Origin: a virus
Taxonomy: Duplodnaviria > Heunggongvirae > Uroviricota > Caudoviricetes
Reading direction: 5' to 3' (one strand)
Length of the DNA stretch: 64,000 nt
IMG/VR virus record: IMGVR_UViG_2917461297_000001
Span: 56,643-120,642 of that record
Part shown: piece by piece, positions 2,890 to 62,056 of the stretch
Layout of the letters: each line of letters starts with the position of its first letter
Numbering within the stretch: position 1 is the stretch's first letter
Notes under the pieces: generated by a model
What the model saw: the letters and a program-made list of their open reading frames with translations, nothing else
What the model was told of the DNA's origin: nothing
Database searches by the model: none
Translations under genes and position numbers: made by a program

Positions 2890-3942
2890 ATGACAGCGAG
2901 TGTTATAAGATTAGAAAATCATATTATGAGTAGTAAAAGTGTAACTAATAGTGTCATGAGTTTAGTTAATGAATTTGCTAATGAAGCGGGAGCTAATTCA
3001 CAAAGCACTAAGTTAGCTTACTTAAATGATTTAAAACAATATCTTAGCAAAGTCTTTGGAAGCGAGAATATTAAAGTAGACTTAGTCGTTTACACTATGA
3101 GCAGAAAACAGTTAATTCAGTATAGAAGTGTTTTAATTGATAATAAATTAAAGCCAAGTACTATTAATCGTAAAATGTCGGCTATAATCGAATTCGCAAA
3201 ATTCCTATACAACAGCGGGTATGAAATTGACCTCGTGGGTATTAACAACATTGCAAAATTAAAAACATCTAAAAATTCATATGAAGTATTGAGCTATGAT
3301 GAAGCGCTTGAGTTTATCAATTGGTTTAAAGAGAATGAGAAAGAGAAAGCAATTGAGAAATACTATTACACTGCTTTAGCGTTTGACACTGGAGTACGTG
3401 CCGAAGCATTAAACAATATCACTCCTCAATCATTTATCTGGAAGAAAGAAGAAGTTGTATTAAAAGGCGTAGATAAAGGAAAGAAACAATTTATTAAAAG
3501 TTTATCATTAGAATTCGCATCGGCGATGTTTAGCGATTTGCATTTAGATAAGGAATCTACTGAGTCAATCTTCAATTTTTCTAGTGAAGTCAGATATAAA
3601 ATGATGAAGCGGGCTAAAAAGGCTCTAGGATATGAAAATAGAAATATTACTTTTCACAGTTTCAAAAAAGGGGCAGTAAACTACGCCTATGAAGCTACAA
3701 AAGATATTCAAGTAGCTAGACAAGTGGGCAATCATGCGAATATCAACACTACTCAAATTTATCTTGAAGACAATAAGCAAGTGTTTCAAGGTGCTATATC
3801 AAATAAACAGAAAATTGATACGGCTGACATTAGATTTTCTGATTACAGTAAAACTGAGTTAATTGAGGCATTAGGTAATTTACCAGAAGCAACACAATCT
3901 ATGTTGAAAAAAGAATTAGCTTCATTAACGCAAATAAAATAA
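2890..3942 (+). CDS. tyrosine recombinase-like protein (phage integrase family)
   Basis: N-terminal SAM-like core-binding region. Catalytic-domain motifs TGVRAEAL (box I Arg), HSFKKGAVNYA (HxxK in place of HxxR) and GNHANINTTQIYLE (His, then Tyr nucleophile). Confidence 0.6.
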   Translation: MTASVIRLENHIMSSKSVTNSVMSLVNEFANEAGANSQSTKLAYLNDLKQYLSKVFGSENIKVDLVVYTMSRKQLIQYRSVLIDNKLKPSTINRKMSAIIEFAKFLYNSGYEIDLVGINNIAKLKTSKNSYEVLSYDEALEFINWFKENEKEKAIEKYYYTALAFDTGVRAEALNNITPQSFIWKKEEVVLKGVDKGKKQFIKSLSLEFASAMFSDLHLDKESTESIFNFSSEVRYKMMKRAKKALGYENRNITFHSFKKGAVNYAYEATKDIQVARQVGNHANINTTQIYLEDNKQVFQGAISNKQKIDTADIRFSDYSKTELIEALGNLPEATQSMLKKELASLTQIK

Positions 3943-4172: not shown

Positions 4173-5486
4173 ATGACAAAAAGGAGGGAAAGCATGAATA
4201 ATAAATTCAAGGCTTTTAAAGAGGTTATTACACTTCTGAAAAATCAAGACACTAGTAAATCAATTAATAAAATTGCCAGTGAAATGGAAAGAAAGTATAG
4301 AGTCCCTAGTGGTATCACACATTCTTTCTTGAATCGTGAATTAGACGATAACTTTTTCGATACTACTGACATTCGACTAATTTCATTATTCATTTTAGAA
4401 AGTTTTAAAATATTGGGGCATGAAGATAGTATACAGGAGTATCTAACAGCCGGAGAAATTAATGAAGCAAAACAGTTTGATTTTCATGCATTCTTAGAGC
4501 AAGACAAAATTACTTTCCCGTATGATTTTCAACCGGTTGTTAAGGTAAACAATGTGTATAGCACAAAAATAAGTGTTAAGCAAATTGCAGAATTTGTTGA
4601 TTCTAAAGTAATCAATTATAACTTTGACATTCAACGAGAATCAAAATTGGAAAAACGAATTGGAAAAATTATTAGAAAGCCAATGTTAAACCAAAAGAAC
4701 ATTAGTGAGATGGAAAAGTTGCTTTTAGAAGATGGATTAAAAGAAAGTACACTTTTCTTTAATGCCGCTCCTATGACAAGTGTGAGTGGTGATGAATTAA
4801 TTTATGACCCAGAAAGTTATACATTAACGATTACTGAGGGAACTAGACTAGATGTTATCGATGGTTTCCACCGAGTTTTAGCAGCACAAAATGCTTATCG
4901 TGAGAACCCGACTATCAATTTTGAATTCAATGTGGTGTTTAGTAACTTTACTACAGCTGAAGCTATCAAATGGCAAGCGCAACACAGTAAGGCGACTCCG
5001 TGGTCAAAGAACAGAGTAGCTGAGTTACAACAAGAATCTGGAGGCGCCAAAGTTGTTAAGGCAATAAAAGATAAAGATGTTGTGTTTGAAGGTGTTATTA
5101 AAACTACAAGTAGCACAACAGGTGGTGGTTCAATAGCTTTTTCTGAACTAAGCAAGTATATTGATGAATTATTTACTGTAGAAACTAGGAGAGACCAAGT
5201 AAGTACAGCTCAAGAAGTTTCAGAAGTGATTTTGGCATACTTAGACTTGCGAGAAATCAATAAAACCTTTAATACTCGTGCCTACATTTACGCTTTCCTT
5301 AAAAACTATGTCGAAAGCGGTTTAACAATTAAAGAATTTTTAAATGAAACTCACAAGGTGGCTAATTATCTAAAAGATAACGAGGTCAATTTCAGAATCG
5401 AAGTGGCAAACCAAAGTGTTAAGAAAGTGCAAATTGAAGCAACCAACAATATAAAAACCTTGTTTGAGAAAGCGAGAGTGGAATAA
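4173..5486 (+). CDS. DGQHR-motif protein (DndB-like / ParB-like nuclease superfamily)
   Basis: VIDGFHRVLAAQNA resembles the invariant DGQHR motif of the DndB/DGQHR family; 437 aa; its stop overlaps the next start (TAATG). Confidence 0.4.
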   Translation: MTKRRESMNNKFKAFKEVITLLKNQDTSKSINKIASEMERKYRVPSGITHSFLNRELDDNFFDTTDIRLISLFILESFKILGHEDSIQEYLTAGEINEAKQFDFHAFLEQDKITFPYDFQPVVKVNNVYSTKISVKQIAEFVDSKVINYNFDIQRESKLEKRIGKIIRKPMLNQKNISEMEKLLLEDGLKESTLFFNAAPMTSVSGDELIYDPESYTLTITEGTRLDVIDGFHRVLAAQNAYRENPTINFEFNVVFSNFTTAEAIKWQAQHSKATPWSKNRVAELQQESGGAKVVKAIKDKDVVFEGVIKTTSSTTGGGSIAFSELSKYIDELFTVETRRDQVSTAQEVSEVILAYLDLREINKTFNTRAYIYAFLKNYVESGLTIKEFLNETHKVANYLKDNEVNFRIEVANQSVKKVQIEATNNIKTLFEKARVE

Positions 5487-6499
5487 TGTTTTACAATAGT
5501 TTGTATAAGAGACAGTTTTTACAATCTTTAGAGCGTGAAAACGAAATAAGAGTGTATACTGCATTATTCAATAACAGCAGTAAAGTAGAGCAACAATTCG
5601 ATACTGATTTGTATAACTTTACAACTTCTGAAATAGAAATTTTGCTTTATAATATCTATTCCTCCAGTAAAAACACTTTACTAACTTATTTAACATTTGC
5701 TAAAAAGTATACTGATTACGCTATCGAGAGAGGAGATAGATTATCTAACATTAATTTGTTCAGAATGTTTACGTACGATAAGATTGATAAGTTTGTATAT
5801 AAACATAAACAAAAGTTTTTCACGTACGAGAAATTCCTACTACATGTTAGTAGCTTCTATAATGCTAGCGATAGAGCATTAGTTTCAGCAATCTTTCATG
5901 GCATTTCTGGGGCGGCTTATAGCGAACTAATCAATCTAACCATCGATGATATTAAAGAAGCTAGAAGTAATCCAACACATGTCGCTGGTGATGAACAATA
6001 TTATAAATTGAGGCTTTTAAACGATAAGAAAGGTGAAACAATTGAGCGCTATATTGAAGTGCCAGAGGTTTTGTTAGATGATATGGAAAAATCATATAGA
6101 GCTACAATCTATTACACCAAGAACGGTGACCCTAGTTCTAGAAGACCTGCAAAAGACATAATAGGCGGAAATCATATTTTTAGAAATGTCGAGTTTACTG
6201 ACACCACAACAGAACAAATTGATAAGCAAGTAGTATATAGACGAATGAAAGTCCTACAAGACTTAACTAACAATTACATTTCAAGTGTTACTAACGTAAT
6301 TGATTCTGGTATATTGCACTATATGTATTTACTATCAGAAAACGGAAAATTAGATTACATGAAAATAGAAAAAGTGATGAGAAGATATAGTAAACACATT
6401 TATGAAAAGTCACTACCATATACAATCGCTAGGTTTATCAAACAATATCAAGATGCTTTACAAGATTTATATGGAGTAGTAATAGTGAATAAGCCCTAA
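5486..6499 (+). CDS. recombinase-like protein, catalytically degenerate
   Basis: N-terminal integrase SAM-like pattern. The box I-like stretch GISGAAYSELINLTIDDI lacks the catalytic Arg, and no HxxR/Y pair is evident. Confidence 0.3.
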   Translation: MFYNSLYKRQFLQSLERENEIRVYTALFNNSSKVEQQFDTDLYNFTTSEIEILLYNIYSSSKNTLLTYLTFAKKYTDYAIERGDRLSNINLFRMFTYDKIDKFVYKHKQKFFTYEKFLLHVSSFYNASDRALVSAIFHGISGAAYSELINLTIDDIKEARSNPTHVAGDEQYYKLRLLNDKKGETIERYIEVPEVLLDDMEKSYRATIYYTKNGDPSSRRPAKDIIGGNHIFRNVEFTDTTTEQIDKQVVYRRMKVLQDLTNNYISSVTNVIDSGILHYMYLLSENGKLDYMKIEKVMRRYSKHIYEKSLPYTIARFIKQYQDALQDLYGVVIVNKP

Positions 6500-19017: not shown

Positions 19018-19233
19018 AGATAAATGCCAGATAGCGAAGAAACTTACTACGTAATTGAAATTGGTTTTGACATTTTTGGTAGAGAAAATAAGAGAGTATA
19101 TAATTCATATTCAAAGAAAGAAGTAGCAGAAGATGTTGCTGATAGATTAAACGCTAGTTGTTTTAACTGAGGCGAAAATTATTTCATAGTGATGAGCGCT
19201 AAGAATTATTTAAAAATTTAAGGAGTGTTTGAG

Positions 19234-19614
19234 ATGATACCAAAATTTAGGGCATGGGAAAAAACTGAAAATCTAATGTCAGATGTTCGTGAAATCAACA
19301 TTTTTGATAAATATGTCGAGCTAGAAAATGGTGCATTTAGAGGACTTGATGAGGTTGTTTTAATGCGGTCAACAGGACTACATGACAAGAATGGTATAGA
19401 GATTTTTGAGGGAGACATAGTGAAGTTCTCAGCAGAGCATGATGGATTAAGTAAGGTTCCACGCAATATAAAATACGAGATTGCTATTGAAGATTTAGTA
19501 GCTTTAATTAAAAATATGGAAAATAAATTGGTATTAAGAATGGTTAATCAAGAAATGGAAACCGTCGGCAACATACACGAACATAGGGAATTATTACAGG
19601 AGGAACGACGATGA
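19234..19614 (+). CDS. YopX-family protein
   Basis: C-terminal TVGNIHEHRELLQEE matches the YopX signature GNI[YH]xNPELL; start moved to ATG 19234 for RBS spacing. Confidence 0.55.
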   Translation: MIPKFRAWEKTENLMSDVREINIFDKYVELENGAFRGLDEVVLMRSTGLHDKNGIEIFEGDIVKFSAEHDGLSKVPRNIKYEIAIEDLVALIKNMENKLVLRMVNQEMETVGNIHEHRELLQEERR

Positions 19615-22767: not shown

Positions 22768-25074
22768 ATGAAACAATTAGTATTACTTAGAGGCGCGCCA
22801 GCTAGTGGTAAGTCAACCTTTTTAAAAGAAAATGGCTTAGAACCGTTCGCATTATCACCTGATGTGTTAAGGTATTCGGCACCAGTAGTCAACGAAACAG
22901 GTCAACTGGTAATGTCTCAAGAAAACGATAATAAAGTATGGAAGTTGTTGTTCGAGATTCTTGAAGAGCGTATGAAAAATGGTGATTTTATTATTGTCGA
23001 TGCTACTCATTCAACAGCTAAACTAATTAACAAATATAAAAAATTAAGAGAAAGTTATGGTTACCGTACATATGTGGTTGATTTTGATATACCCTTAGAA
23101 GAATGTTTAAAGAGAAATAGCCGAAGAAAAGAGTATGAATTTGTTCCAGAAGAAGCTATTGAGAATATTCATGAACGATTAAAGTACGAGAATATTCCTA
23201 GTTTTGCTAAAGTGTTAAAACCAGAAGAATTGTTGGAAGAAATTGAATGGAAAGTGCAAGATTTTAATCAATTTAATAAAGTCAAAGTTATTGGTGATGT
23301 GCATGGTTGCTATACTGCATTAAATGAATTAGTTACATATGAAGAAATTGCTGATAATCAAGACACAGCTTATATTTTTGTAGGAGATTTGTTCGATAGA
23401 GGGTTAGAAAACGCAAAAGTATTTGAATTCATTGAATCTATTTATAACTTGTCTAACGTGTTTCTGATTGAAGGGAATCATGAAAGACATTTGAGAACAT
23501 ATATAAAAGTATATGACGAGTTAATTGATGAGCTTAATTATAGCTTAGGTGATACTGAAAAAGATAAGTACAATAAAATGTATAAATACATTAAGTCTCG
23601 TGGATTCATTCAAACGACACTAAAAGAATTTTTAGATAGTGGAATCACAAAAGACCGAGTAAAGCCAATCCTAAGAAAATTGCTACAATGCTTGTATTTT
23701 GAGTTAAATGGTTCTCAATATATTGTGACTCATGGTGGTATTTTACCGAACATGATTCCAAATTTAAACTTAGTTTCTACTAGCCAATTAATTAATGGAA
23801 TTGGTGGATATGAGTTTGAAATCGATGATGAATGGAGTGATGAAAACTTTTACATGATTCAAAACCGTATTATTCAAATACATGGTCACAGAAATCTTTA
23901 TCGTATTCCATTGGACGTAGATGCAAGCTCAATCAACTTAGAAGGAAGAGTTGAGAAAGGTGGGCATTTGAGAGCCATTACTATTATTAAAGGGAACCCT
24001 TTTGTTAAGAACAAAATTGAGACTCATGAAATTAAGAATGATGTGTTTGACTCAAAATGGTTAATTTCAGACGATTACACAGAAAAGTTAGATGTTGATT
24101 TAACAGTAGAACAATTTATTGATGCAGCAAAAAGTGATAGAAAGTATATCAAAGTTCAAAATCAATATGATAATGTGTGCTCTGTTAATTTCACATCAAA
24201 GCTGTTTAATAGTGGGAAATGGAATCAGTTAGCAGTGCATGCAAGAGGGTTATTTGTTAAAGACGATGGAGCGGATAGTGTAGTTAAAGGTCGAGCGTAT
24301 AACAAATTCTTCAACATTGATGAAAACAAAAAAAATAAATTAGATAAACTTATTGACAGACTGGAGTTTCCTGTAAAAGCATATCGAAAAGAAAATGGAT
24401 ATTTAGGAATCCTGTTTTACGATAGTGATATTGACGAACTTGTGTATGCTTCAAAGAGTAAAACTCACAAAGCAAAGTATGACAATCAATATGCGTTGTG
24501 GTTCAAGGATATAGTTGAGAATGCTTTAAGTGTTGATGAATTGGAGAGGCTAAAAAATGAGCTTAAAGAGTACAACGCATCAGCTGTGTTTGAAGTAATT
24601 GATGTTAAGAATGACCCACACATCGCTAAATATGATAGAAGTAAAATTATACTCTTAGATGTTGTAAAGAACCAACTACAATTTGAAAGAGTGAGTGAAG
24701 ATTACAGTCGAGAACTAGCTGCTATGATTGGACTAGAGCACAAGGAGTTAGAGTTTACTTTCAATAACTGGCAAGATTTCTATCAATGGTATAAGGTGCA
24801 AATTAAGAGCTTGGACGCAAAACATGAAGGTTGGGTACTTGAAGACAGCAAGGGCTATATGCTCAAGATAAAATCTAAATGGTACAAAGACTGGAAGTAT
24901 ATTAGAAAGTTCATTGGTAAGATTAACACTGGTTATTCACCAAAACAATTTATTTTACAAAGTAACCATGAAGTAAGAGATTTTTATTACTGGTATAAGA
25001 AAAATGGAAAGAAAACAGATAGAGATAGCGACTTAATTAGATTGAGAGATGAGTTCTACGAACAAGAGGGTTAA
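22768..25074 (+). CDS. Pnkp-like RNA repair enzyme (5'-kinase / 2',3'-phosphatase / ligase-type nucleotidyltransferase fusion)
   Basis: N-terminal P-loop LLRGAPASGKSTF. Central calcineurin-like motifs GDVHGCY, GDLFDRG, GNHE, THGG and GHRN. C-terminal nucleotidyltransferase motif I KxDG (FVKDDGAD). Same architecture as bacterial Pnkp. Confidence 0.6.
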   Translation: MKQLVLLRGAPASGKSTFLKENGLEPFALSPDVLRYSAPVVNETGQLVMSQENDNKVWKLLFEILEERMKNGDFIIVDATHSTAKLINKYKKLRESYGYRTYVVDFDIPLEECLKRNSRRKEYEFVPEEAIENIHERLKYENIPSFAKVLKPEELLEEIEWKVQDFNQFNKVKVIGDVHGCYTALNELVTYEEIADNQDTAYIFVGDLFDRGLENAKVFEFIESIYNLSNVFLIEGNHERHLRTYIKVYDELIDELNYSLGDTEKDKYNKMYKYIKSRGFIQTTLKEFLDSGITKDRVKPILRKLLQCLYFELNGSQYIVTHGGILPNMIPNLNLVSTSQLINGIGGYEFEIDDEWSDENFYMIQNRIIQIHGHRNLYRIPLDVDASSINLEGRVEKGGHLRAITIIKGNPFVKNKIETHEIKNDVFDSKWLISDDYTEKLDVDLTVEQFIDAAKSDRKYIKVQNQYDNVCSVNFTSKLFNSGKWNQLAVHARGLFVKDDGADSVVKGRAYNKFFNIDENKKNKLDKLIDRLEFPVKAYRKENGYLGILFYDSDIDELVYASKSKTHKAKYDNQYALWFKDIVENALSVDELERLKNELKEYNASAVFEVIDVKNDPHIAKYDRSKIILLDVVKNQLQFERVSEDYSRELAAMIGLEHKELEFTFNNWQDFYQWYKVQIKSLDAKHEGWVLEDSKGYMLKIKSKWYKDWKYIRKFIGKINTGYSPKQFILQSNHEVRDFYYWYKKNGKKTDRDSDLIRLRDEFYEQEG

Positions 25075-25075
25075 A

Positions 25076-25360
25076 ATGGTATATTTGCGCTATTTAAATA
25101 AGGCTAAAAAGAAACCAGTGGCGATTGATTTTATTCAATTCACTGGAATTGAGAGTGCAGAAGCAATTGAAGAGTGGACATATAACAATGTAGTATATAC
25201 AGTCACTAATCATAAACCTAAAATGAAGGTGAGAACGTTAGAAGGCATCATGACAGCTGAATTAGGTGATTATATTGTGAAAGGGATAAAAGGCGAGTTT
25301 TATCCAGTTAAGCCGGATATTTTTAAGAAAACTTACGAAATTTTGGAGGCGAGTGAATGA
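25076..25360 (+). CDS. hypothetical protein
   Basis: Start moved to ATG 25076 after GAGGG. Confidence 0.35.
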   Translation: MVYLRYLNKAKKKPVAIDFIQFTGIESAEAIEEWTYNNVVYTVTNHKPKMKVRTLEGIMTAELGDYIVKGIKGEFYPVKPDIFKKTYEILEASE

Positions 25361-26330: not shown

Positions 26331-27011
26331 ATGAAAATCAGAAATATAGATTGCTTAATTGGAATGGAAGAAATACAAAAAGAAAGTATTGACGCTTTAA
26401 TTACAGACCCACCATATAATATTGCAAGAGATAATAATTTCAAATCAATGGGTAGAGCAGGGATTGACTTCGGTGAATGGGATAAGAATTTTGATATGAC
26501 AAGTTGGTTGCCAGTCGCTATTTCTAAAATAAAAAAAGGAGGAAATATTGTTATTTTCACTGATTGGAAAGCAATAACACCTATAATTAAAGAATTAGAA
26601 AGATTGGATTGCGACATTAAGGATATGTTGAGAATTGAAAAGTCTAATCCTATGCCACGCAACAGAGATAGACGGTTTATAACGGATTATGAAATTGCAA
26701 TTTGGGCAGTGAAAAAAGGCGAGAAATGGACTTTTAATAGATTATCTGAAACTTACGAAAGACCTTTAATAAAAACGAAAGTCACTCCTAAGTCCGAAAA
26801 AATAAATGGCGGACATCCTACCCAAAAGAATATCGAAACGATGGAGTGGATAATTCAAAGATTGACCAACGAGAGAGATGTCATTCTTGACCCGTTTATG
26901 GGGAGTGGAACAACAGGTGTAGCTTGCAAAAAATTGAATAGAAGATTCATAGGCTATGAATTAGAAGAAGGATATTTTGGAATTGCTAAAGAAAGATTAT
27001 TAATTATTTAG
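26331..27011 (+). CDS. DNA amino-methyltransferase (N6-adenine or N4-cytosine, beta class)
   Basis: Motif IV ALITDPPYN precedes motif I DPFMGSGTTGVA; no cognate restriction endonuclease is evident. Confidence 0.7.
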   Translation: MKIRNIDCLIGMEEIQKESIDALITDPPYNIARDNNFKSMGRAGIDFGEWDKNFDMTSWLPVAISKIKKGGNIVIFTDWKAITPIIKELERLDCDIKDMLRIEKSNPMPRNRDRRFITDYEIAIWAVKKGEKWTFNRLSETYERPLIKTKVTPKSEKINGGHPTQKNIETMEWIIQRLTNERDVILDPFMGSGTTGVACKKLNRRFIGYELEEGYFGIAKERLLII

Positions 27012-33098: not shown

Positions 33099-33127
33099 TT
33101 GACATATAGAAAATGAGGTTGTATAGT
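33099..33127 (+). promoter_or_regulatory. strong sigma-A promoter driving the TnpB-like gene
   Basis: TTGACA at 33099-33104, 17-nt spacer, TATAGT at 33122-33127; the AAATAAATTAAT motif lies 8 nt upstream. Confidence 0.6.
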
Positions 33128-33169
33128 ATTAAGTGTAACAAAGAAAAAAAATTAAATGAGGTGAAACGA

Positions 33170-34522
33170 ATGGAAAGTGAAAAAGAAAAATATGTCGTGC
33201 AATCGTACGGGATTAAGCTAATTAAACCAGTAGGTGTTGATGAAGGAGATTGGGATTTTGCTGGTAAAGTGTTAAGAGATTTAGACTACGCTTGCTTTAG
33301 AGTTAAAAATAAAGCAGCTACTAGAACTTACATGAACGTAATTGAGAAATTAGAATATGAAAACATTCATGGTAAAGGAACATATGATAAGTATTTTAAA
33401 ACGAGATATGGTAAGACATTTTCAGCCTATAACAGCGAATGCGCAAGAGAAGATAAAGAATTAAATAAAGGAGATTTATACAGAGAATATTTCAATTTAA
33501 TGGCTCGTGAGGGTGAAAAGGTTGTAAAATATAACATGAAAAAAATATTAAATGGGAACGCAAGCAACATTACTTTCAAAAGAAATCAACCAGTCCCTAT
33601 AACTTCAAGAATGATTTTTATCACAAAAGAAAGTGGGAAATATTATGCTGAGTTGACTTTGCTAAGTCCTGAAAAAGCGAAAGAGCTTGGCAGAAAAGGG
33701 AAGAATGGTACAAGAATCAAATTTTTACTTAGCTCTAAAGGACAGGAAAAAGTTATATTAGACAGATTAACAAGTGGTGAATATGATTTAAGAGATAGTC
33801 ATATTCACGTTAAAAAGAAAGGAAATAAATTAACTAACTATTTAATCATTGCTTATAGACATAAAGTAAAAGACGATAACGATTTGATTCCGAATAAAGT
33901 ATTAGGTGTTGACTTAGGAGTATCAAAAGCGGCATATATGGCTGTTAGTGAATCACCAGTGTCTGAATATATAAATGGTGGAGAAATTGAGCAGTTTAGA
34001 AATGGCGTTGAAGCTAGAAGGAACGGCATGAGAAATCAGTTGAAATATCACTCTAGCAACAGAAGCGGACATGGCAGAGCAACGAAACTAAAGCCGTTAG
34101 AAAAACTTAGAGAGAAAGTCAGCAATTTTAGAAAACTAACAAATCATCGTTATGCTAAATTTATTGTTGATACCGCATTGAAAAATAATTGCTCAATTAT
34201 TCAAATGGAAGAATTGAAAGGTATCTCGAAAAACGACACATTTCTGAAGCGTTGGAGTTATTTTGATTTACAAGAAAAAATTGAGAATAAAGCAATAGCA
34301 GTAGGTATTGAGGTGAAAAAAGTTTCTCCTAAATTTACCTCTCAAAGATGTAATAAATGCGGTTATATCGATAAAGAGAGCCGAAAAAGTCAAGAGAAGT
34401 TTGAATGTGTGAATTGTGGGCATAAAACTAACGCTGATTTAAATGCCGCAAGAAACCTTTCAATGCTCAATGTTGAAAAAGAAATAAAAGCGCAATGTAA
34501 GGCACAAAAAATTAAGTATTGA
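33170..34522 (+). CDS. TnpB/Cas12-like RNA-guided nuclease (RuvC + zinc finger)
   Basis: RuvC-I VLGVDLGVS, RuvC-II IIQMEELKG and RuvC-III NADLNAARNL, with the zinc finger CNKCGY...CVNCGH between II and III. Start moved to ATG 33170 (RBS GAGGTG) because 33113 lies inside the promoter. Confidence 0.75.
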   Translation: MESEKEKYVVQSYGIKLIKPVGVDEGDWDFAGKVLRDLDYACFRVKNKAATRTYMNVIEKLEYENIHGKGTYDKYFKTRYGKTFSAYNSECAREDKELNKGDLYREYFNLMAREGEKVVKYNMKKILNGNASNITFKRNQPVPITSRMIFITKESGKYYAELTLLSPEKAKELGRKGKNGTRIKFLLSSKGQEKVILDRLTSGEYDLRDSHIHVKKKGNKLTNYLIIAYRHKVKDDNDLIPNKVLGVDLGVSKAAYMAVSESPVSEYINGGEIEQFRNGVEARRNGMRNQLKYHSSNRSGHGRATKLKPLEKLREKVSNFRKLTNHRYAKFIVDTALKNNCSIIQMEELKGISKNDTFLKRWSYFDLQEKIENKAIAVGIEVKKVSPKFTSQRCNKCGYIDKESRKSQEKFECVNCGHKTNADLNAARNLSMLNVEKEIKAQCKAQKIKY

Positions 34523-38015: not shown

Positions 38016-38816
38016 ATGAATATTTCATATATTAGTGATTTACATATTGATAATTGGGTTAAACACAATAACAACCAAATCAAACACGAAAAACAAGTTA
38101 AAGAGTTTATTAATAATTTAATTGAAAGAAGTAATTTAAAAGTCAAGGAAGTGTTAGTTATTGCTGGAGATATTTCACATTACAATAGAATCACAATGTG
38201 GGTGCTAGAGGAGTTCTCTAAGCAATTTGATAAAGTATTCTTTGTGAGTGGTAATCATGACTATTATTTAGTATCTCAACAACAAACGAAAAAATATAAA
38301 AATGAAAGTAAATTGCGGGCTAAAGAATTATCAGAGTTAGTTAAACAATTAGGCAATGTGACTTTCTTTAATAGTATGTATAGTGATAATTCCGAAGTGT
38401 ATAAAGGGGTTACATTTGCTGGTGCTACTATGACTAGCCTACCAACAACAGAAGAGGAAGTTAGATTCTATCGTGAATTCATGAATGATAGCAAGTACAT
38501 TACAGAAGAGCCCAAGTTGTACAACACTTATGACAAAGTAATTTATGAGAACATTTTAAGTGAGAAAGTAAAGCCAGATGTATTTCTCTCACATTATCCG
38601 TTAATCACAACATCATCTCATAGAAAGAATCTAAGTGATGGTTCAATCGGTTCATATAAATGTGAGGTTAGTGAATTGATTGCGCCGATTAACTTTTTCG
38701 GGCACGTACATGAACATCAAGTAATGTATAAGGTTGCTGACACGAAGCATTATTGTAATGCATTGGGTTATCCGAATGAGAATACAAATACTATTATTAG
38801 ACAAATTGAAATTTAA
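38016..38816 (+). CDS. calcineurin-like metallophosphoesterase
   Basis: Motifs SDLHID, GDISHY, GNHDYY and GHVHEH. Confidence 0.65.
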   Translation: MNISYISDLHIDNWVKHNNNQIKHEKQVKEFINNLIERSNLKVKEVLVIAGDISHYNRITMWVLEEFSKQFDKVFFVSGNHDYYLVSQQQTKKYKNESKLRAKELSELVKQLGNVTFFNSMYSDNSEVYKGVTFAGATMTSLPTTEEEVRFYREFMNDSKYITEEPKLYNTYDKVIYENILSEKVKPDVFLSHYPLITTSSHRKNLSDGSIGSYKCEVSELIAPINFFGHVHEHQVMYKVADTKHYCNALGYPNENTNTIIRQIEI

Positions 38817-39858: not shown

Positions 39859-41262
39859 ATGGCAGAAAGAAACGAATATGTACTACACCATAACCATTCA
39901 TATTACTCTAACTTGCGTTTAACAGATGCGATTACTTCACCAAGACAATTAATCGAGACAGCCAAACAATATGGTTATAAAGGTATGAGTATTACTGAAC
40001 ATGAATCACTTTCTAGCGCTGTCGATATGATTAAAACAGTGAAAGAGATGAAAGCTAGTGGAGAATTACGAGAAGATTTTAGAATGCTGTTGGGCAATGA
40101 AATCTATCTCGTTGATAGCTTGGAAGAGGTTAGAGACAACTATGAAAGCGGAAAAACAAAATTCCCACATTTTTGTTTAATTGCAAAGAATAGAAAAGGT
40201 TTTGAAGCATTAAGTAAATTAAGCTCACAAGCGTGGAAGAATTCGTTTTTTAGTAGTTCTATTATGGAACGTGTTCCAACTGAAAAAGCATATTTAAGAG
40301 AAGTAGCGCAGTCAGATGAGTATAAAGGAACATTGATGGCAAGCAGCGCATGTCTTGGAAGCCCAATCTGCTTATATTTACAAGAAAAAATGCTTATGGA
40401 ACAAACTTTTGATAAAGAAAAGATTCAAGAAGCACACAACAAAGCTAAAAATGAAGTTCAATGGTGTGTTGATACATTTGGTAAAGACGATTTTTACATT
40501 GAATTACAGCCAGCGGATACACCCGTGCAACGTTATGTTAATGAAAACTTATTAGAGTTTGTTAAAGAATTTGATTTAAAATATATAGTTGCTTGTGACA
40601 CACATTACGCCAACAAGTCTCATGCTACAATTCATGCTGCATTTCTCAACTCTAAAAATGAAGAGCGTGAGGTAGAAGAGTTCTATAAGTATACATATAT
40701 GCATAGTGTAGACGATATTTATAAACAAATGGCTTACTATTTAGGTGAAGACGTGGTCAAACAAGCGCTAGAAACTACAACGGAATTATACGATAAATCA
40801 GAGGATTATGACTTAGCCCATTCACCAATTATTCCACGAGCCGAGATTCCTGAATTTGAGTTAAAGCACTTGTTTCAGCCCGCTTATGACAAATATAAGA
40901 GTCTTGAAAGATTAGCGTATTCTGATAAGAAAGACGAAAGATATATGCTTCATTTGTTAGAGGAAGGTTATCTGAGGGAGCTACACAAAGAAGATATAAC
41001 TAAAGAAGAGTTTCATCAAATATTAGCAAGGCTAGATGTTGAAATGGAAGAGATTTTAGGTGTAGGAGATAAGATTAATCAAACAGTAAGCTCATACTAT
41101 ATTACTGTGCGTGATATAATCAACACAATTTGGGAAGAAGATACTTGTAACGGATATTCTGGTTCATTAGTTGGCAGTGGACGTGGGTCATCTGGTGGTT
41201 TCTTATCATTGTTCTTACTTGGAATTACTCAAGTTAATCCATTAGAACATAAAAATATGCCA
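39859..41262 (+). CDS. dnaE: DNA polymerase III alpha (DnaE-family), exon 1 (PHP domain and start of catalytic core)
   Basis: PHP signature YVLHHNHSYYSNLRLTDA. Homology runs to ...NPLEHKNMP; the annotated ORF then reads into non-homologous sequence and stops at 41349. Confidence 0.55.
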
Positions 41263-41656
41263 CATTTCAGACATTTGCATAAAAGTCGTCAAGATTTCCC
41301 TAAATTATTGGGGATTAAATGTGAACGCAAGACAAAGCGGTGTGCTTAGAATTATTCTAAGTGCTAACAGTATCAGTTGAATAAGACTACCATTCAAGCC
41401 TTACAAGGAGATAATGGAAATAAATTAAAAGACGAAGCAGCTGACTAAGAGAGCCTAAGGTCTATTAATAAAAATAGATAGCTGGTAATACTGTGCGAAG
41501 CCTTTAGTTCAAAGGAACGTGCAACGACTATCCTGTAAAGGAGTACGCCTGATTTTGTCACAGGTGGAAGCGCATTTACATACATATGTATGGTGATATA
41601 GTCTATTCCGACTGTTAATTCAGTGTTAAAGTATTAGGAAACTAACGGTGTATAAG
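41263..41656 (+). ncRNA. putative ORF-less group I intron interrupting dnaE
   Basis: About 394 nt with no ORF, inserted inside the conserved NPERxSMP-DIDIDF region; the 3' end is ...UAUAAG (terminal G); exon 2 resumes in frame with DVDVDIE. Confidence 0.4.
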
Positions 41657-44143
41657 GACGTAGATGTAGACATAGAAAGTAAACGAAGACAAGAAGTTAT
41701 TCGAGCATTAAAGAATAAATATGGTGAAGATAAGGTTCTAAATGTTGCTACTTTTACAACAGCTGGTACTAAATCTTGTATTAAAATAGCAGCAAGAGGA
41801 TTGGGAATCGAGGATACAGAAGCCCAATATATTGCTAGTTTGATTCCAACTGAGCGTGGACAACAGTATACACTCAGTGACTGTTTATATGGCAATGAAG
41901 AAAAAGGTAGAAAGAAACAACAACAATTTATTAATGAGATGGAAAAGTATCCAGAATTATTGAAAACAGCTTTAGGTTTAGAAAGTATTGTCGTTGCTAA
42001 ATCACAACATGCTGGTGGAGTAATCATCTTTAATGATGAGATTCATAAACACAGTGCAATGATGAAAGCGGCAAAAGGAGAAGCAAGTATTACTCAATGG
42101 TCGCTTAAAGATAGTGAGTACATGGGTTTAGTAAAGTTTGACTTATTATCGATTGATAACTTGGATAGGATTAGAAGCACCTTAGAATTGATGGAAAAAG
42201 ACGGTGTGATTGAATCAAAAGGAAGTCTAAAAGATACATTTAACGAGTATCTACACCCACGTGTACTTAATCATGAGGATAAACGTTACTATGAATTAGC
42301 TTCAAGAGGGATAGTAAACGATACATTCCAATTCAACACTAATATTGGTATTGAAACATTAAAGAGAATCAAGCCTGAAAACTTTGAACAATTCAGTGCT
42401 GCTAACTCATTAATGCGATTGCAGTCACAAGAAGGTAAAGAACCACCAATGGACATTTTCATTAAGCATAAAGAAAACATTCAAACTTGGTATGATGAAA
42501 TGAATGAGTGGGGATTAACAGATAGCGAAATTAAGGTTATGGAAGAGCATATTGGACATACGTTAGGAGTCTCTCCTGTGCAAGAACAAGCTATGGGACT
42601 ATCTGGAGACCCTAGAATCGCAAACTTCACTGTAGAAGAGCAGAATAAGCTCAGAAAGGCTATTGCAAAGCCAAAAGGAGCGGCTTTAGATGAAATAAAA
42701 TTGCTGTTTTATCGTAAAGGTAAGAAACAAGGAACAAGCAAAAACTTACTTGATTATGTATGGGAAACTCAATTCACACCAATGTTCAGTTATGCATTCA
42801 GTTCCATTCACTCTAATCTGTACTCAATCATCGGTATTCAGAATTTACATCTCAACTTGTTCTACAATCCAATCTATTGGCAAACAGCGTGTTTAAACGT
42901 TGACAGTGGCGCTACATCAGAAGATAGTGAATTTCTCGTAGACCATGAAAAGATTGCTAATGGTATTGGTAAGATTAAAGAGTTCGGTGTAGAAGTTAAG
43001 TTACCTGATGTTAACAAGTCTGATTTTGCGTTTACACCTGACGCTGAACACAATGTAATCATTTATGGACTTAAGCCTGTTAAGTCATTAAACTCAAAGA
43101 CAACGCACCATATTATCGAAAACAGACCATACAACTCTATCGAAGATGTACTTACTAAGCTATATGACAATAAACTGGTTACAAACACACAATTAATTAA
43201 TATGGTTAAGTCTGGCATGTTAGATAACATTTGCGAGTCACGTAAAGTAGCGATGATGGAAGTTATCAAACATATAACTAAAGTCCCTGAAACTTTGACT
43301 ATGCAAAATATTAAGACATTAATTGAGTCCGGTATTCTTGAAGGTAGACCAGAAGAAGAAATGGTGCTATTTAGAGAATCATTTAAGAACAAAGTGGTCA
43401 GAAAAGAGAAGCAAGGTAAATATAATGTTAAGATATTTAAAGTTGAAGATATGGAATTGTACGACAAATTGTTTGGTAACACAGGTGTCGTAAATGTTAC
43501 AAGTAACTATTATGAAGTTGATGAGAAGCAGTTCAAGAAAGTGTTCGATAAGAAGATTAAAGACCTTAAAGAATGGTTAAAGTCTGATGAGCAACTTAAG
43601 AAAGTACAGAGTTATGAATTGAATAAGCAGTGGATTAAATATGCTTTAGGTAGTTATTCAAAATGGGAAATGGAAACATTGTCGTTCTACTACCATGAAC
43701 ACGAGCTATCTCAAGTAGACAGTAAAATGTACAACCTAAGCAGATACAATGAATTGCCTGAAGAACCCCAAATAGTTGATACATTTATGTTTAAAGGAAG
43801 AGAGTTCCCTAAGTACAAAATCGATTCAATTGCCGGTGTTGTGATTTCTAAGAACGCTACAAAGAATATGGTCACAATTATTGCTACCGATGGTTCAGTA
43901 GTACCAATTAAGTATCAAGGAAATTTCTCTTACTACAACAAGGCAGTAAAAAGAAATGGCAAGATAGTTGAGGATAGTTGGTTTGGTAAAGGGAATTTAT
44001 TAATTGTTAGTGGATTTAGAAGAGGTAATCAATTTGTCGCTAAGAGATATGCTGATTCAAACACTTCCACGACAACAAAGCTAATTGATTATGTAGGAAA
44101 GAACGGCGAAGTCACTTTTAAACTAGAAAGAGAATATATTTAA
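41657..44143 (+). CDS. dnaE: DNA polymerase III alpha (DnaE-family), exon 2
   Basis: DVDVDIESKRRQEVIRALKNKYGEDKVLNVATFTTAGTKSCIKIAARGLGI aligns with DnaE PDIDIDF...RREEVI..KYG...TFGT..AK..IRDVGRVLG. Confidence 0.6.
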   Translation, partial: DVDVDIESKRRQEVIRALKNKYGEDKVLNVATFTTAGTKSCIKIAARGLGIEDTEAQYIASLIPTERGQQYTLSDCLYGNEEKGRKKQQQFINEMEKYPELLKTALGLESIVVAKSQHAGGVIIFNDEIHKHSAMMKAAKGEASITQWSLKDSEYMGLVKFDLLSIDNLDRIRSTLELMEKDGVIESKGSLKDTFNEYLHPRVLNHEDKRYYELASRGIVNDTFQFNTNIGIETLKRIKPENFEQFSAANSLMRLQSQEGKEPPMDIFIKHKENIQTWYDEMNEWGLTDSEIKVMEEHIGHTLGVSPVQEQAMGLSGDPRIANFTVEEQNKLRKAIAKPKGAALDEIKLLFYRKGKKQGTSKNLLDYVWETQFTPMFSYAFSSIHSNLYSIIGIQNLHLNLFYNPIYWQTACLNVDSGATSEDSEFLVDHEKIANGIGKIKEFGVEVKLPDVNKSDFAFTPDAEHNVIIYGLKPVKSLNSKTTHHIIENRPYNSIEDVLTKLYDNKLVTNTQLINMVKSGMLDNICESRKVAMMEVIKHITKVPETLTMQNIKTLIESGILEGRPEEEMVLFRESFKNKVVRKEKQGKYNVKIFKVEDMELYDKLFGNTGVVNVTSNYYEVDEKQFKKVFDKKIKDLKEWLKSDEQLKKVQSYELNKQWIKYALGSYSKWEMETLSFYYHEHELSQVDSKMYNLSRYNELPEEPQIVDTFMFKGREFPKYKIDSIAGVVISKNATKNMVTIIATDGSVVPIKYQGNFSYYNKAVKRNGKIVEDSWFGKGNLLIVSGFRRGNQFVAKRYADSNTSTTTKLIDYVGKNGEVTFKLEREYI

Positions 44144-44724: not shown

Positions 44725-45072
44725 ATGAGTAAATTACATAATGAAGTGAAAGAAACACAATCATTGGTAGATGATATTGAAAAGTTAGGATATAAGGCTT
44801 TAGATGAGGGAGATTTAGAATTAATCAACAAGTTTATCGAAGCATTAGAGCCATACTTACAAACGGTTGATTCAACTATTAATGCTTTAGAGAATAAATT
44901 AAATGATAAAAAATGTAAAGAAACAAAGAAACAATTGTCATTTTATAATTACAAATCACGTGAGCTTCATCGCCTTATTCCTGAATTAAAAAAACATGCC
45001 GTAAATACAAAAGCGTGCTTAGTAGCACAAGGAGGTTATCATGGAGATTCAGAAATTGTACGAAGTGCTTGA
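44725..45072 (+). CDS. hypothetical coiled-coil protein
   Basis: Start ATG 44725 after AGAGGAGAG; extended -10 TGgTATAAT at 44674-44682 upstream. Confidence 0.4.
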   Translation: MSKLHNEVKETQSLVDDIEKLGYKALDEGDLELINKFIEALEPYLQTVDSTINALENKLNDKKCKETKKQLSFYNYKSRELHRLIPELKKHAVNTKACLVAQGGYHGDSEIVRSA

Positions 45073-46366
45073 AAGTTTGAAGAAAACTTCTAGTAGAATC
45101 GTGAAAGAAAATATTTTACGAAATAACAAGAATGATGAATTACTACAAAATGTTTTAAAATTCTTATACGACGACTTAATCACAACTGGGCTGTCCACAA
45201 AAAAGATTGCCAAACCAGTTAATCCAGTAGAGGTCGATATTCCAAATTTGCAAGTATTAACGGACTACTTGAAGAGAAACAACTCTGGTAAGGACAAAGA
45301 CATTGCGTTAGCAAAAGGGTATATCCAAGCATTTAAAAAAGAATATGGAGAAGATGTTGCTAATTTTGTTAAAAGCATCATTATTAAAGATTATCCTGCT
45401 GGTGTAAGTAAGATTACTTTGAATAAAGTGTTTGGTAAAAACTTTATTTTTAAATTTGACGTGCGCAAAGGAAGTAAATTTGAAGGAGAGTTAAAACCAA
45501 ACGTAATTTATTCTCAAAGTGTAAAGATTGATGGGCATCGTTGCGTAGCCTTGGTAGATGAAGAAGGAGTGAAATTATTCGCACGAAGCGGTAAAGAGTA
45601 TAAGGGCTTGATTACTTTTGAGAAAGCTCTAGAAGCGTTCTACGAGGAACATAAGCAACCAATGATGTTTGATGGTGAACTTTTAGCATTTAACGATAAT
45701 GATTTAAGTAGCGACAAACTATTCAAAGTTACTTCAAGTCGATTAAGAAAAGATGGTGTTAAGTCAGATATTCAATATATTATGTTTGATTGTATGCCAT
45801 TAGAAGAATTTAAAGACGGTAAGTCAAAACTTAAATACATTAAACGACGTGAGCAACTTGCTGAGCTTACAGGCTTACTTAATACATATACGAATGGAAA
45901 CAAACAAGGACGCAAGTATTTCACAAATGTTAAGTCCTTGTATCAAGGAAATGACCTAGCAGAGATTCAACGTGTTCAAAAGAAAATGGAAGAATTAGGA
46001 TATGAGGGGACTATGCTAGATGATATTAATGCTTTCTATACAACTACACGAACAAAGACGTTACTAAAATTTAAAACTTTTTATAACGCTGATTTGAAAG
46101 TGTCACGAGTAGTTGAACACACTCGTGGTGGTAAGTTAGGAAGTATCGTTGTTGAATATAAAGGGAATGAGTTACAAGTAGGTTCTGGGTTTACGGAAAA
46201 AGAAAGAATTAAGTATTGGCAAGAGCCTGAACTAATCGTCAATAAGATTGTTGAAGTTGGTTATTTTGAAGAGTCAAGTGATAAAGACGGGAAACTAAGT
46301 TTACGCTTTCCAACATTTAAACAAATTAGAGAAGACAAAGAAGTTACTGATGTGTCTTATCATTAG
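45041..46366 (+). CDS. ATP-dependent DNA ligase
   Basis: Motif I SVKIDGHRC (KxDGxR), motif III MMFDGELL, motif IV YEGTMLDD, motif V TLLKFK. Confidence 0.8.
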   Translation: MEIQKLYEVLESLKKTSSRIVKENILRNNKNDELLQNVLKFLYDDLITTGLSTKKIAKPVNPVEVDIPNLQVLTDYLKRNNSGKDKDIALAKGYIQAFKKEYGEDVANFVKSIIIKDYPAGVSKITLNKVFGKNFIFKFDVRKGSKFEGELKPNVIYSQSVKIDGHRCVALVDEEGVKLFARSGKEYKGLITFEKALEAFYEEHKQPMMFDGELLAFNDNDLSSDKLFKVTSSRLRKDGVKSDIQYIMFDCMPLEEFKDGKSKLKYIKRREQLAELTGLLNTYTNGNKQGRKYFTNVKSLYQGNDLAEIQRVQKKMEELGYEGTMLDDINAFYTTTRTKTLLKFKTFYNADLKVSRVVEHTRGGKLGSIVVEYKGNELQVGSGFTEKERIKYWQEPELIVNKIVEVGYFEESSDKDGKLSLRFPTFKQIREDKEVTDVSYH

Positions 46367-48059: not shown

Positions 48060-48680
48060 ATGGCAAATCATATTAAAGATAAAGTAGTTTATATGGGTGG
48101 ACATCTGTTAAACGAAGCTATGGTCGAGTATCGTGAGAAACAGCATAATATAGTAGAGGATATTGTAGGAGTGACACCTTATTCACCGCACAAGGATAAA
48201 TCAATTAACGACAAACAAAATGCAGTACAAGAAGGATTAGCTGAGCGTATTTTACGCAATGATTTTAAAGCTATGCAAGAATCAGATATTTTTGTATTTG
48301 ATATTCTTAATGAGGGATTAGGAACAATTGCAGAACTGGGTATTGTTTTGGGAATGAAGCATCAAGCTCAAAAAACTATTGAACGTTTAGAAGAGGAGTC
48401 AGAAATTGTAAGGTATGATACTGAGGGCTATGAGACTGATTCATATGAACATCTACAAGATGAAATTGAAGAACAAGAAAAGATTTTTAATAAACCAGTA
48501 CTCTGCTATTGTTCTGATATTCGTCAGGGACATGGCAAGCCTTACAACAACCCTGACAGAGCGGAGTTCAGTACGAACCAGTTTGTTTACGGTGCTGTAT
48601 TGGAGCTCACTAATGGTGTAGGGTTCATTTCTTGGGAGAAAGTGCTTGAAGAATTAGAGAAATTAGGTGTTTCGAAATGA
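48060..48680 (+). CDS. nucleoside 2-deoxyribosyltransferase-like protein
   Basis: VVYMGGHLL near the N-terminus and FDILNEGLGTIAELGIVLGM resemble the NDT-family Rossmann motif and DxGTxxExG catalytic motif; start ATG 48060 after GGGGGAG. Confidence 0.4.
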   Translation: MANHIKDKVVYMGGHLLNEAMVEYREKQHNIVEDIVGVTPYSPHKDKSINDKQNAVQEGLAERILRNDFKAMQESDIFVFDILNEGLGTIAELGIVLGMKHQAQKTIERLEEESEIVRYDTEGYETDSYEHLQDEIEEQEKIFNKPVLCYCSDIRQGHGKPYNNPDRAEFSTNQFVYGAVLELTNGVGFISWEKVLEELEKLGVSK

Positions 48681-49402
48681 TTGAACTTAACAAAATTTAT
48701 AACGAAGATTGTTTAGAAGGTATGAAAAGAATACCGGATAAATCAGTTGATATGATATTATGTGATTTGCCTTATGGAACCACTAGGAATAAATGGGATA
48801 TAGTTATTGATTTAGAAAAGTTGTGGGAACAGTATAAGCGGGTTATTAAAGATAATGGCGTTATCGCACTTACAGCAGCCCAACCTTTTGAATCACGACT
48901 TGTTAATAGCAATCCTAAAATGTTCAAATACGATTTAATTTGGAAGAAGAGTTTACCTACCGGATTCTTAAATGCAAAACGTATGCCTTTAAGAAGTCAT
49001 GAAAGTATTCTTATTTTCTACAAAAAACCTCCCGTATACAATCCTATTATGCGCAAAGGAAAGTTTAGAAATAAAGGGAATACAGGTAAAAAAGGTGGCA
49101 GATGTTATGGCGAAACTAAAAGGTATGAATCATGGAATGATGAGTACTATCCTACATCGGTAATCGAAGTTAGTAATGCTAGTCAGAAAGGGAAAATACA
49201 CCCTACTCAGAAACCAGTTGAGTTATTTCAGTGGTTGATTAAAACGTATACAAATGAGGGAGATACGGTACTGGATAACTGTGTCGGCAGTGGCACAACA
49301 GCAATTGCTTGTATGAATACAGGTAGAAACTATATTGGTTATGAGCTAGATAAAGAATATTACGATGTTGCAATTGGACGCATTGAGTCAGCTAAACAAT
49401 AA
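48677..49402 (+). CDS. DNA amino-methyltransferase (beta class)
   Basis: Motif IV-like MILCDLPYGTT precedes motif I VLDNCVGSGTTAIAC. Confidence 0.6.
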   Translation: MIELNKIYNEDCLEGMKRIPDKSVDMILCDLPYGTTRNKWDIVIDLEKLWEQYKRVIKDNGVIALTAAQPFESRLVNSNPKMFKYDLIWKKSLPTGFLNAKRMPLRSHESILIFYKKPPVYNPIMRKGKFRNKGNTGKKGGRCYGETKRYESWNDEYYPTSVIEVSNASQKGKIHPTQKPVELFQWLIKTYTNEGDTVLDNCVGSGTTAIACMNTGRNYIGYELDKEYYDVAIGRIESAKQ

Positions 49403-61501: not shown

Positions 61502-62056
61502 ATGAAAAGGTGGACGAAGGAAGAGGTTGAGCTACTTATCGACTTAAAAGAAAATAAGAAACTTAAATATAAGGACATTGCTAATATTTTAAACAAAACA
61601 CCTCAGCAATGTGCTAGTAAATATCAACGTCACCACAAATATGATTACACGATAAATGGCTCTTTTAGGACAAATAGAAAATGGACGCATGAAGAAGACA
61701 ACCTTTTAAAAAAATATAAAGACAACACATACAAAGAATTGATGAAATTATTTCCTGACAGAACCATTAACGGCATTACCAACAGAATGCAAAAATTAGG
61801 GGTTAAAAGAGTAGCAAATAATACTATTAATTATGAACAAGAACAGTTTATAAAAGAAAATTATTTAAAGATGACTAATATTCAACTGGCTAGAGCTTTG
61901 AATGTAGACAGGCAAGTCATAGCCAGAGTTAAAAGAAGAGAAGGACTAGAAACAGACAAAGTGTGGAGACTAAAAAAGATTGAATTTGATGAGGAAGATG
62001 TAATGTCTATAAACGCAGAATTTGAACTTAGTTTAGAAAAGAAAGAAGGAAGCTAA
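61502..62056 (+). CDS. Myb/SANT-like DNA-binding protein (candidate recombination accessory/regulator)
   Basis: Repeated W/helix pattern (RWTKEEVELL.., RKWTHEEDNLLKKY) typical of SANT/Myb repeats, plus a C-terminal HTH; its stop overlaps the recombinase start (TAATG). Confidence 0.4.
   Translation: MKRWTKEEVELLIDLKENKKLKYKDIANILNKTPQQCASKYQRHHKYDYTINGSFRTNRKWTHEEDNLLKKYKDNTYKELMKLFPDRTINGITNRMQKLGVKRVANNTINYEQEQFIKENYLKMTNIQLARALNVDRQVIARVKRREGLETDKVWRLKKIEFDEEDVMSINAEFELSLEKKEGS

Follow-up and report, generated by a model that had tools for sequence, protein, structure and literature searches.

The heal-and-seal logic of RNA repair is well known, and the closest described systems combine their modules in different ways. 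CthPnkp, the Pnkp of C. thermocellum, carries a P-loop kinase, a metallophosphoesterase and a ligase of the Rnl4 clade. Fungal Trl1 has the order ligase-kinase-CPD, and its 3' end is healed by a 2H cyclic phosphodiesterase (CPD). In phage T4, two proteins, Pnkp with a HAD (DxDxT) phosphatase and the ligase Rnl1, repair tRNA-Lys cleaved by PrrC. The Capnocytophaga Pnkp1-Rnl-Hen1 system follows the same logic. Martins and Shuman are said to have reported in 2004 that the baculovirus AcNPV ORF86 Pnkp-Rnl is a single viral polypeptide that combines ligase, kinase and 3'-phosphatase activities, in the order ligase-kinase-HAD phosphatase; both this order and the healing chemistry are unlike those of the protein described here. 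We analysed a gene for a kinase-phosphoesterase-ligase fusion in a 64,000-nucleotide stretch (the window) of a Caudoviricetes virus, positions 56,643 to 120,642 of the IMG/VR record IMGVR_UViG_2917461297_000001. Its healing half is homologous to bacterial Pnkp and is not T4-like. Its sealing half falls within the Trl1-LIG (Rnl6) clade, and the gene is a chimera of Pnkp-type healing and Trl1-type sealing.

The first-pass annotation of the window had read the gene as a three-domain bacterial Pnkp. The position and length that it gave were exact, as verified with the list of open reading frames (ORFs). All the strings that it quoted were found in the translation: GAPASGKST at amino acids (aa) 9-17, GDVHG at 176-180, GDLFDRG at 206-212, GNHE at 236-239, HGH at 372-374 and FVKDDG at 496-501. 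The three domains were recovered by Pfam, well above chance level, as AAA_33, Metallophos and RNA_lig_T4_1. PHROG 8238, named 'RNA ligase', matched the protein end to end (E 9e-276), and the AlphaFold model of the full protein had a pLDDT of 89.5 and a pTM of 0.78. Residue and architecture counts were made on 269 sequences analysed locally, with ligase positions scored in 268.

The N-terminal domain is a P-loop 5'-kinase, as had been proposed. AAA_33 covered aa 4-138 (E 3e-21), and a profile of 32 full-length homologues matched the CthPnkp kinase (4gp7) in the PDB with E 1.2e-11. PDB profile searches also matched T4 Pnk (1ltq) in the kinase domain, and the Capnocytophaga kinase domain (4xrp) was related as well (E 2.1e-8). 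When the AlphaFold model was searched with Foldseek, the CthPnkp kinase was the best match for this domain (TM 0.71-0.73, target-normalised). The catalytic residues were conserved across 224 homologues: K15 and D32 are present in all 219 that align there (the other 5 have gaps), R35 is kept by 217 and R120 by 223.

The central domain is a binuclear calcineurin-like phosphoesterase, in agreement with the earlier reading. Metallophos covered aa 171-378 (E 1.8e-14), and the Asp/His/Asp/Asn/His/His ligands are conserved. The full set of metal and phosphate ligands (D177, H179, D207, R211, N237, H238, H322, H372 and H374) is identical to that of CthPnkp (GDxHG, GDxxDRG, GNHE, H, HGH). The CthPnkp phosphatase (4j6o) was matched by the 32-homologue profile across the domain (E 2.2e-13). 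With a phosphatase-only profile, it aligned over 202 of 235 positions and was the sole solved structure covering almost the whole domain; lambda phosphatase (1g5b) and PPP phosphatases matched just the N-terminal third, and elsewhere 1g5b reached no further than the N-terminal half. The target-normalised Foldseek TM was 0.61 for lambda phosphatase and 0.52 for the CthPnkp phosphatase. No HAD (DxDxT) 3'-phosphatase was matched in the protein by Pfam and curated-model scans, and the distinction drawn earlier from T4 Pnk, which joins a kinase to a HAD domain, is correct.

The ligase is of another clade than that of CthPnkp. A ligase-only profile (aa 430-768) matched the Candida glabrata tRNA ligase (9qw7) with E 2e-29 and the Chaetomium Trl1-LIG structures 6n0v and 6n67 with E of about 6e-19, in alignments that start in the N-subdomain and extend to the IIKLRxxF motif at the very C terminus. 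T4 Rnl1 was matched in the adenylyltransferase core only (E 2.4e-9), and Pnkp-C was not recovered by this profile even at E <= 10. In a comparison of ligases by score and aligned length, Trl1-LIG (Rnl6; 6n0t and 9qw7) scored 28.4 and 27.4 over 311 and 313 of 339 positions, T4 Rnl1 (Rnl1) 23.9 over 251, an archaeal ligase (Rnl3; 5d1o) 17.5 over 259, Pnkp-C (Rnl4; 4drf) 8.5 over 200 and the Pnkp1-system Rnl (4xrp) 6.3 over 180. TIGR04075, the equivalog model of bacterial Pnkp, scored 77.4 bits, far below its cutoff of 750, and aligned only aa 3-247 to its positions 9-270 of 851. The Rnl4-type C-terminal ligase domain by which bacterial Pnkp is recognised was not found in the protein, nor was the C-terminal tRNA-specificity domain of T4 Rnl1, which has another C-domain. 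Thus, the assignment to bacterial Pnkp stands for the domain order, the kinase and the phosphoesterase, and fails for the ligase. The all-helical C-domain that defines the Rnl6 clade is present in the window protein; its signal is weak when sequence alone is used, and the assignment to the Trl1-LIG type is based on full-domain alignment together with the predicted structure. Compared with the fungal enzymes (6n0t, 6n0v, 6n67, 8rbj, 9qw7), the window protein is prokaryotic/viral rather than eukaryal, shares ~20% sequence identity, has the sealing module last instead of first and carries a metallophosphoesterase in place of the 2H domain.

All lysine-adenylate motifs of the ligase align and are near-invariant. 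Pfam RNA_lig_T4_1 covered aa 492-706 (E 1.3e-34; 120.4 bits against a cutoff of 28.3). The motif residues are R493, K513/F515, K541 (motif I), K563 (Ia), E609 (III), E687-G688 (IV) and K700/K702 (V), and they align with Trl1 R99, K120/F122, K148, K169, E218, E300-G301 and K323/K325. K513, K541, K563, E609, E687, G688, K700 and K702 are kept in 268/268 homologues, F515 in 267 and R493 in 266. A C-terminal nucleotidyltransferase had been recognised correctly, with its motif I misplaced to FVKDDG. This string comes after a conserved ARGLF element. Of 32 homologues, only 3 have Lys at the K498 position and 20 have Asn, and 27 are gapped at G501. The true motif I is K541-E-N-G; its aligned counterparts are K148-E-N-G in Chaetomium Trl1 and K99-E-D-G in T4 Rnl1. 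K541 and G544 are found in all 268 homologues and N543 in 265.

Table 1 Features of the kinase-phosphoesterase-ligase gene, in window coordinates.
Feature	Position	Strand	Basis or remarks
Complete ORF, kinase-phosphoesterase-ligase fusion	22768..25074	+	ORF list; ATG start, 768 aa plus stop codon
Polynucleotide 5'-OH kinase domain, aa 1-160	22768..23247	+	P-loop G9-T17; K15, D32, R35, R120 conserved
Binuclear metallophosphoesterase domain, aa 165-430	23260..24057	+	Pfam Metallophos, conserved ligands
RNA ligase adenylyltransferase module, aa 446-703	24103..24876	+	Pfam RNA_lig_T4_1; Trl1-LIG and T4 Rnl1 alignments
FVKDDG, non-catalytic string, aa 496-501	24253..24270	+	Translation, homologue alignment
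Nucleotidyltransferase motif I K541-E-N-G, predicted AMP-lysine	24388..24399	+	Translation, alignments
H618, counterpart of Chaetomium Trl1 His227 (sulfate / 2'-PO4 ligand)	24619..24621	+	Alignment
All-helical C-domain, aa 704-768, common to Trl1-LIG	24877..25071	+	
W709-K710-Y-I-R713, counterpart of Trl1 Y333-R334-Q-W-R337 (RxxR 2'-PO4 site)	24892..24906	+	Translation, alignment

In the fungal LIG, His227, Arg334 and Arg337 hold, together with Asn150, a sulfate thought to mimic the RNA 2'-PO4. The His-Arg-Arg triad enforces 2'-PO4 specificity, and its mutants adenylylate RNA 60- to 420-fold more slowly (PMC11404444, PMC12440814, PMC6379707). The alignment with Trl1-LIG maps Asn150 to N543, His227 to H618, Arg334 to K710 and Arg337 to R713; the structural residues Tyr333 and Arg389 correspond to W709 and R760. 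Two residues of the triad are matched and the third is replaced by Lys, all three being near-invariant. Among 268 relatives, H618 and W709 are found in 268, K710 in 265 (Arg in the other 3) and R713 in 266, so that the predicted pocket is conserved to the same degree as the catalytic lysine. The Asn/His/(K/R)xxR set is missing from two control ligases. In T4 Rnl1, motif I reads KEDG, the His position is gapped and (K/R)xxR is lacking; in the Rnl1-like gp265 of Bacillus phage G, motif I reads KLDG, Asn takes the place of the His and WKxxR is lacking.

Taken as a whole, the gene very probably encodes an autonomous RNA heal-and-seal enzyme on a single polypeptide. The N-terminal kinase would phosphorylate a 5'-OH RNA end, and the central phosphoesterase, of Mn type, would open a 2',3'-cyclic phosphate. 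Since it has His179, like wild-type CthPnkp, it would most likely then strip off the phosphate to give a 3'-OH end. The ligase is predicted to self-adenylylate on K541, pass the AMP to the 5'-phosphate and join the ends. Hen1 should not be needed for sealing, because the ligase is of the Trl1-LIG clade and not of the Rnl4 type. By analogy with T4 Pnkp/Rnl1 and PrrC, the phage copy plausibly counters host ribonucleases that leave cyclic-phosphate ends. Copies on Bacillales chromosomes point to a broader function in RNA repair, which phages have taken up. The analysis establishes the domain identities, the conserved catalytic residues, the structural clade of the ligase and the lack of partner genes in the contexts scanned; the enzyme activities, the RNA substrate and the counter-defence role are inferred from these.

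Several points weigh against this proposal. The searched literature contained no activity measurements on any family member. The 64-kb window has neither tRNA genes nor an identifiable nuclease target. Some family members sit in chromosomal loci outside phages, and counter-defence is therefore not the only role of the family. A near-invariant Trl1-like 2'-phosphate pocket sits awkwardly with removal of the 2'-phosphate before sealing.

This last point leads to a variant of heal-and-seal repair that differs in the end chemistry. The phosphoesterase would yield 3'-OH/2'-PO4 ends, the pocket of N543, H618, K710 and R713 would grip the 2'-PO4, and sealing would leave a 2'-phosphate at the junction, as in yeast. 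A host Tpt1/KptA, or the phosphoesterase of the enzyme itself, might then take that phosphate off; alternatively, it might persist and block re-cleavage. The near-invariance of the pocket and its absence from both control ligases speak for this route. So does the chemistry of CthPnkp, whose phosphoesterase converts the cyclic phosphate to a 2'-phosphomonoester before removing the phosphate; the single change H189D halts it at the 2'-phosphate, and it then pairs with Trl1-LIG instead of T4 Rnl1 (PMC1920235). In the present family, Gln replaces the His of GDxHG in 32 of the 223 aligned homologues (14%). However, the His on which the monoesterase activity of CthPnkp depends is kept in the window protein (H179, 23302-23304) and in 85% of the aligned homologues, and wild-type CthPnkp pairs poorly with Trl1-LIG. 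Searches for Tpt1/KptA found none in the window, none in six related contexts and none in Staphylococcus phages among the matches listed, and Arg334 is replaced by Lys. Plant tRNA ligase requires the 2'-PO4 without either arginine, and the Chaetomium LIG prefers it without strictly requiring it, so the pocket residues predict 2'-PO4 specificity imperfectly. For the junction, we lean towards a clean 2'-OH over a 2'-phosphate, which we rate as a lesser prospect; the full yeast-type route is, in our judgement, doubtful.

A role mainly outside RNA repair, for instance in processing and ligation of DNA ends during replication, or as a protein phosphatase/kinase with another use of adenylylation, is improbable. 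The gene does sit in a region of replication and nucleotide metabolism, the lambda-phosphatase-like fold also acts on phosphoproteins, and the CthPnkp kinase phosphorylates DNA ends as well. However, the window has its own dedicated ATP-dependent DNA ligase (45041-46366), the ligase domain comes from clades that act on single-stranded RNA ends, and the three predicted activities, fused in 224 of 269 relatives, exactly fit RNA breaks with 2',3'>p and 5'-OH ends. Membership in the bacterial Pnkp/Hen1 family, with a Pnkp-type ligase dependent on Hen1 for sealing and 2'-O-methylation, can be dismissed as highly unlikely: the domain order and the CthPnkp-like kinase and phosphatase are outweighed by the TIGR04075 score, the missing Rnl4-type ligase and the lack of an adjacent Hen1.

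The three-domain architecture is widespread, with 2,089 database matches. At least 80% query coverage was reached in 113 phage records, which include Twort- and SEP1-like Staphylococcus phages, an SPbeta relative, and Brochothrix, Fusobacterium and Lactobacillus phages. The names given to homologues in the databases conflict (RNA ligase, polynucleotide kinase, phosphatase, AAA ATPase, tRNA ligase). When the ligase domain was searched exhaustively, 1,197 representatives at 50% clustering were recovered. Among the 269 sequences, 224 were kinase-phosphoesterase-ligase fusions, 31 stand-alone ligases, 13 phosphoesterase-ligase proteins, several of which resemble truncated genes, and 1 a kinase-ligase protein. 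On a Bacillus haynesii chromosome (locus L005, 10001-12190), the three-domain gene stands alone as an insert within a core locus, flanked by lysA/ppiB/rap on one side and ypuD/ribD on the other, and its surroundings carry no phage genes; the cluster of this copy has 228 member sequences. Further chromosomal copies were found in Thermoactinomyces and Marininema. In Staphylococcus phages of Silviavirus/Kayvirus type (H27, H28, H35, H36, H45, H46), only C-terminal pieces were matched (aa 277-763, 462-761, 538-763 or 653-763), one of them annotated as 2',3'-cyclic nucleotide phosphodiesterase, which suggests split or decayed copies.

No close DNA relative of the gene was found by megablast among 50,697 phage records. 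The nearest proteins, 91% and 87% identical, both come from Staphylococcus pseudintermedius assemblies, and one of them lies on a 161.5-kb contig whose gene order agrees with that of the window. No Hen1, Tpt1/KptA, 2H or RtcB turned up when window ORFs of 150 aa or longer and the surrounding 10 kb in six related contexts were scanned, and the earlier remark that no Hen1-like methyltransferase is adjacent holds. No neighbour gene is conserved across seven contexts, which fits an autonomous enzyme. In phages, KptA was matched in 98 records, mostly enterobacterial jumbo and Clostridioides phages, with no Staphylococcus among the matches listed; the kptA of phiCD211 does not adjoin a ligase gene.

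The family is already catalogued and loosely annotated, and it is not a new kind of system. The classification is corrected here: the protein is a Pnkp/Trl1 chimera, not a Hen1-less Pnkp, and its Trl1-type sealing module would explain why Hen1 should not be needed. In the searched literature, no fusion of Pnkp-type healing with an Rnl6/Trl1-type ligase was characterised, and an earlier computational description may exist. In the same literature, Rnl6/Trl1-LIG was described from fungi, kinetoplastids and plants only; it was not linked to phages or bacteria, and no prokaryotic or viral branch with a 2'-phosphate pocket was reported. The C-domain published as unique to Trl1-LIG is now seen in ~1,200 cluster representatives, drawn from phages and chromosomes of Firmicutes, together with its phosphate-binding residues, which bears on the origin of the eukaryotic tRNA-splicing ligase.

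Tentatively, these proteins may form a prokaryotic/viral branch of Trl1-LIG that works the yeast way through its Asn-His-Lys-Arg pocket and leaves an internal 2'-phosphate in the repaired RNA. Bacteria possess Tpt1 and have no known route to RNA with an internal 2'-phosphate (PMC6097658). If it exists, such a branch would be the missing bacterial pathway that supplies substrates to Tpt1/KptA, and the 2'-phosphate could shield a repaired tRNA from re-cleavage, like the 2'-O-methyl mark in Pnkp/Hen1. With this family, it can be tested directly whether bacteria and phages are able to make 2'-phosphate RNA junctions, a question tied to the so far unexplained bacterial Tpt1/KptA. For staphylococcal phages, the gene is a candidate counter-measure to RNA-cleaving defences, and a single protein sealing 2',3'>p / 5'-OH breaks would be a useful reagent.

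Bacillus phage G has a different RNA repair set-up and was kept as a control only, its ligase being T4 Rnl1-like and without the pocket. There, gp264, a kinase with an HD domain (HD-Pnk-like), adjoins the ligase gp265 (locus L012, 7354-10020), and 9 kb downstream, an NAD-salvage cluster includes a KptA-like gene, gp280 (19036-19596). In phage Twort, a separate Ser/Thr phosphatase gene is found 1.3 kb upstream of the repair-gene homologue. The window also encodes a second, stand-alone calcineurin-like metallophosphoesterase of 266 aa (38016-38816).

The repair gene lies in a dense block of co-directional genes, and its start and stop codons overlap with those of its neighbours. The downstream overlapping ORF (25049-25360) is not conserved with the ORF 3' of the phage Twort homologue. 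Scans for promoter and terminator signals gave matches only at chance level. By Pfam, the window ORFs form a replication and nucleotide-metabolism region. Nearly all ORFs are on the + strand, and GC skew is positive in all 2-kb bins (1-64000). Two DNA methyltransferases (26331-27011 and 48677-49402), one with a DPPY motif and one of N6_N4 type, are not Hen1-like.

DNA polymerase III alpha is encoded in two ORFs (39859-41349 and 41648-44143) about 300 bp apart; the first stops at position 102 of Pfam DNA_pol3_alpha and the second begins at 103. No Rfam model, intron models included, matched in the window; the break may reflect a split gene, an intron that escaped recognition or the insertion of a mobile element. 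A TnpB / Cas12f-like (OrfB_IS605) gene lies within the phage early region (33113-34522), and the 91% relative has one at a similar position. Three recombinase-type genes are present: a tyrosine recombinase (2890-3942), an MrpR-like core-binding protein (5486-6499) and a large serine recombinase (62056-63615). Together with YopX and YolD in the relative, they suggest an SPbeta-like temperate element, and the window belongs to a large staphylococcal (pro)phage, probably an SPbeta-like one.

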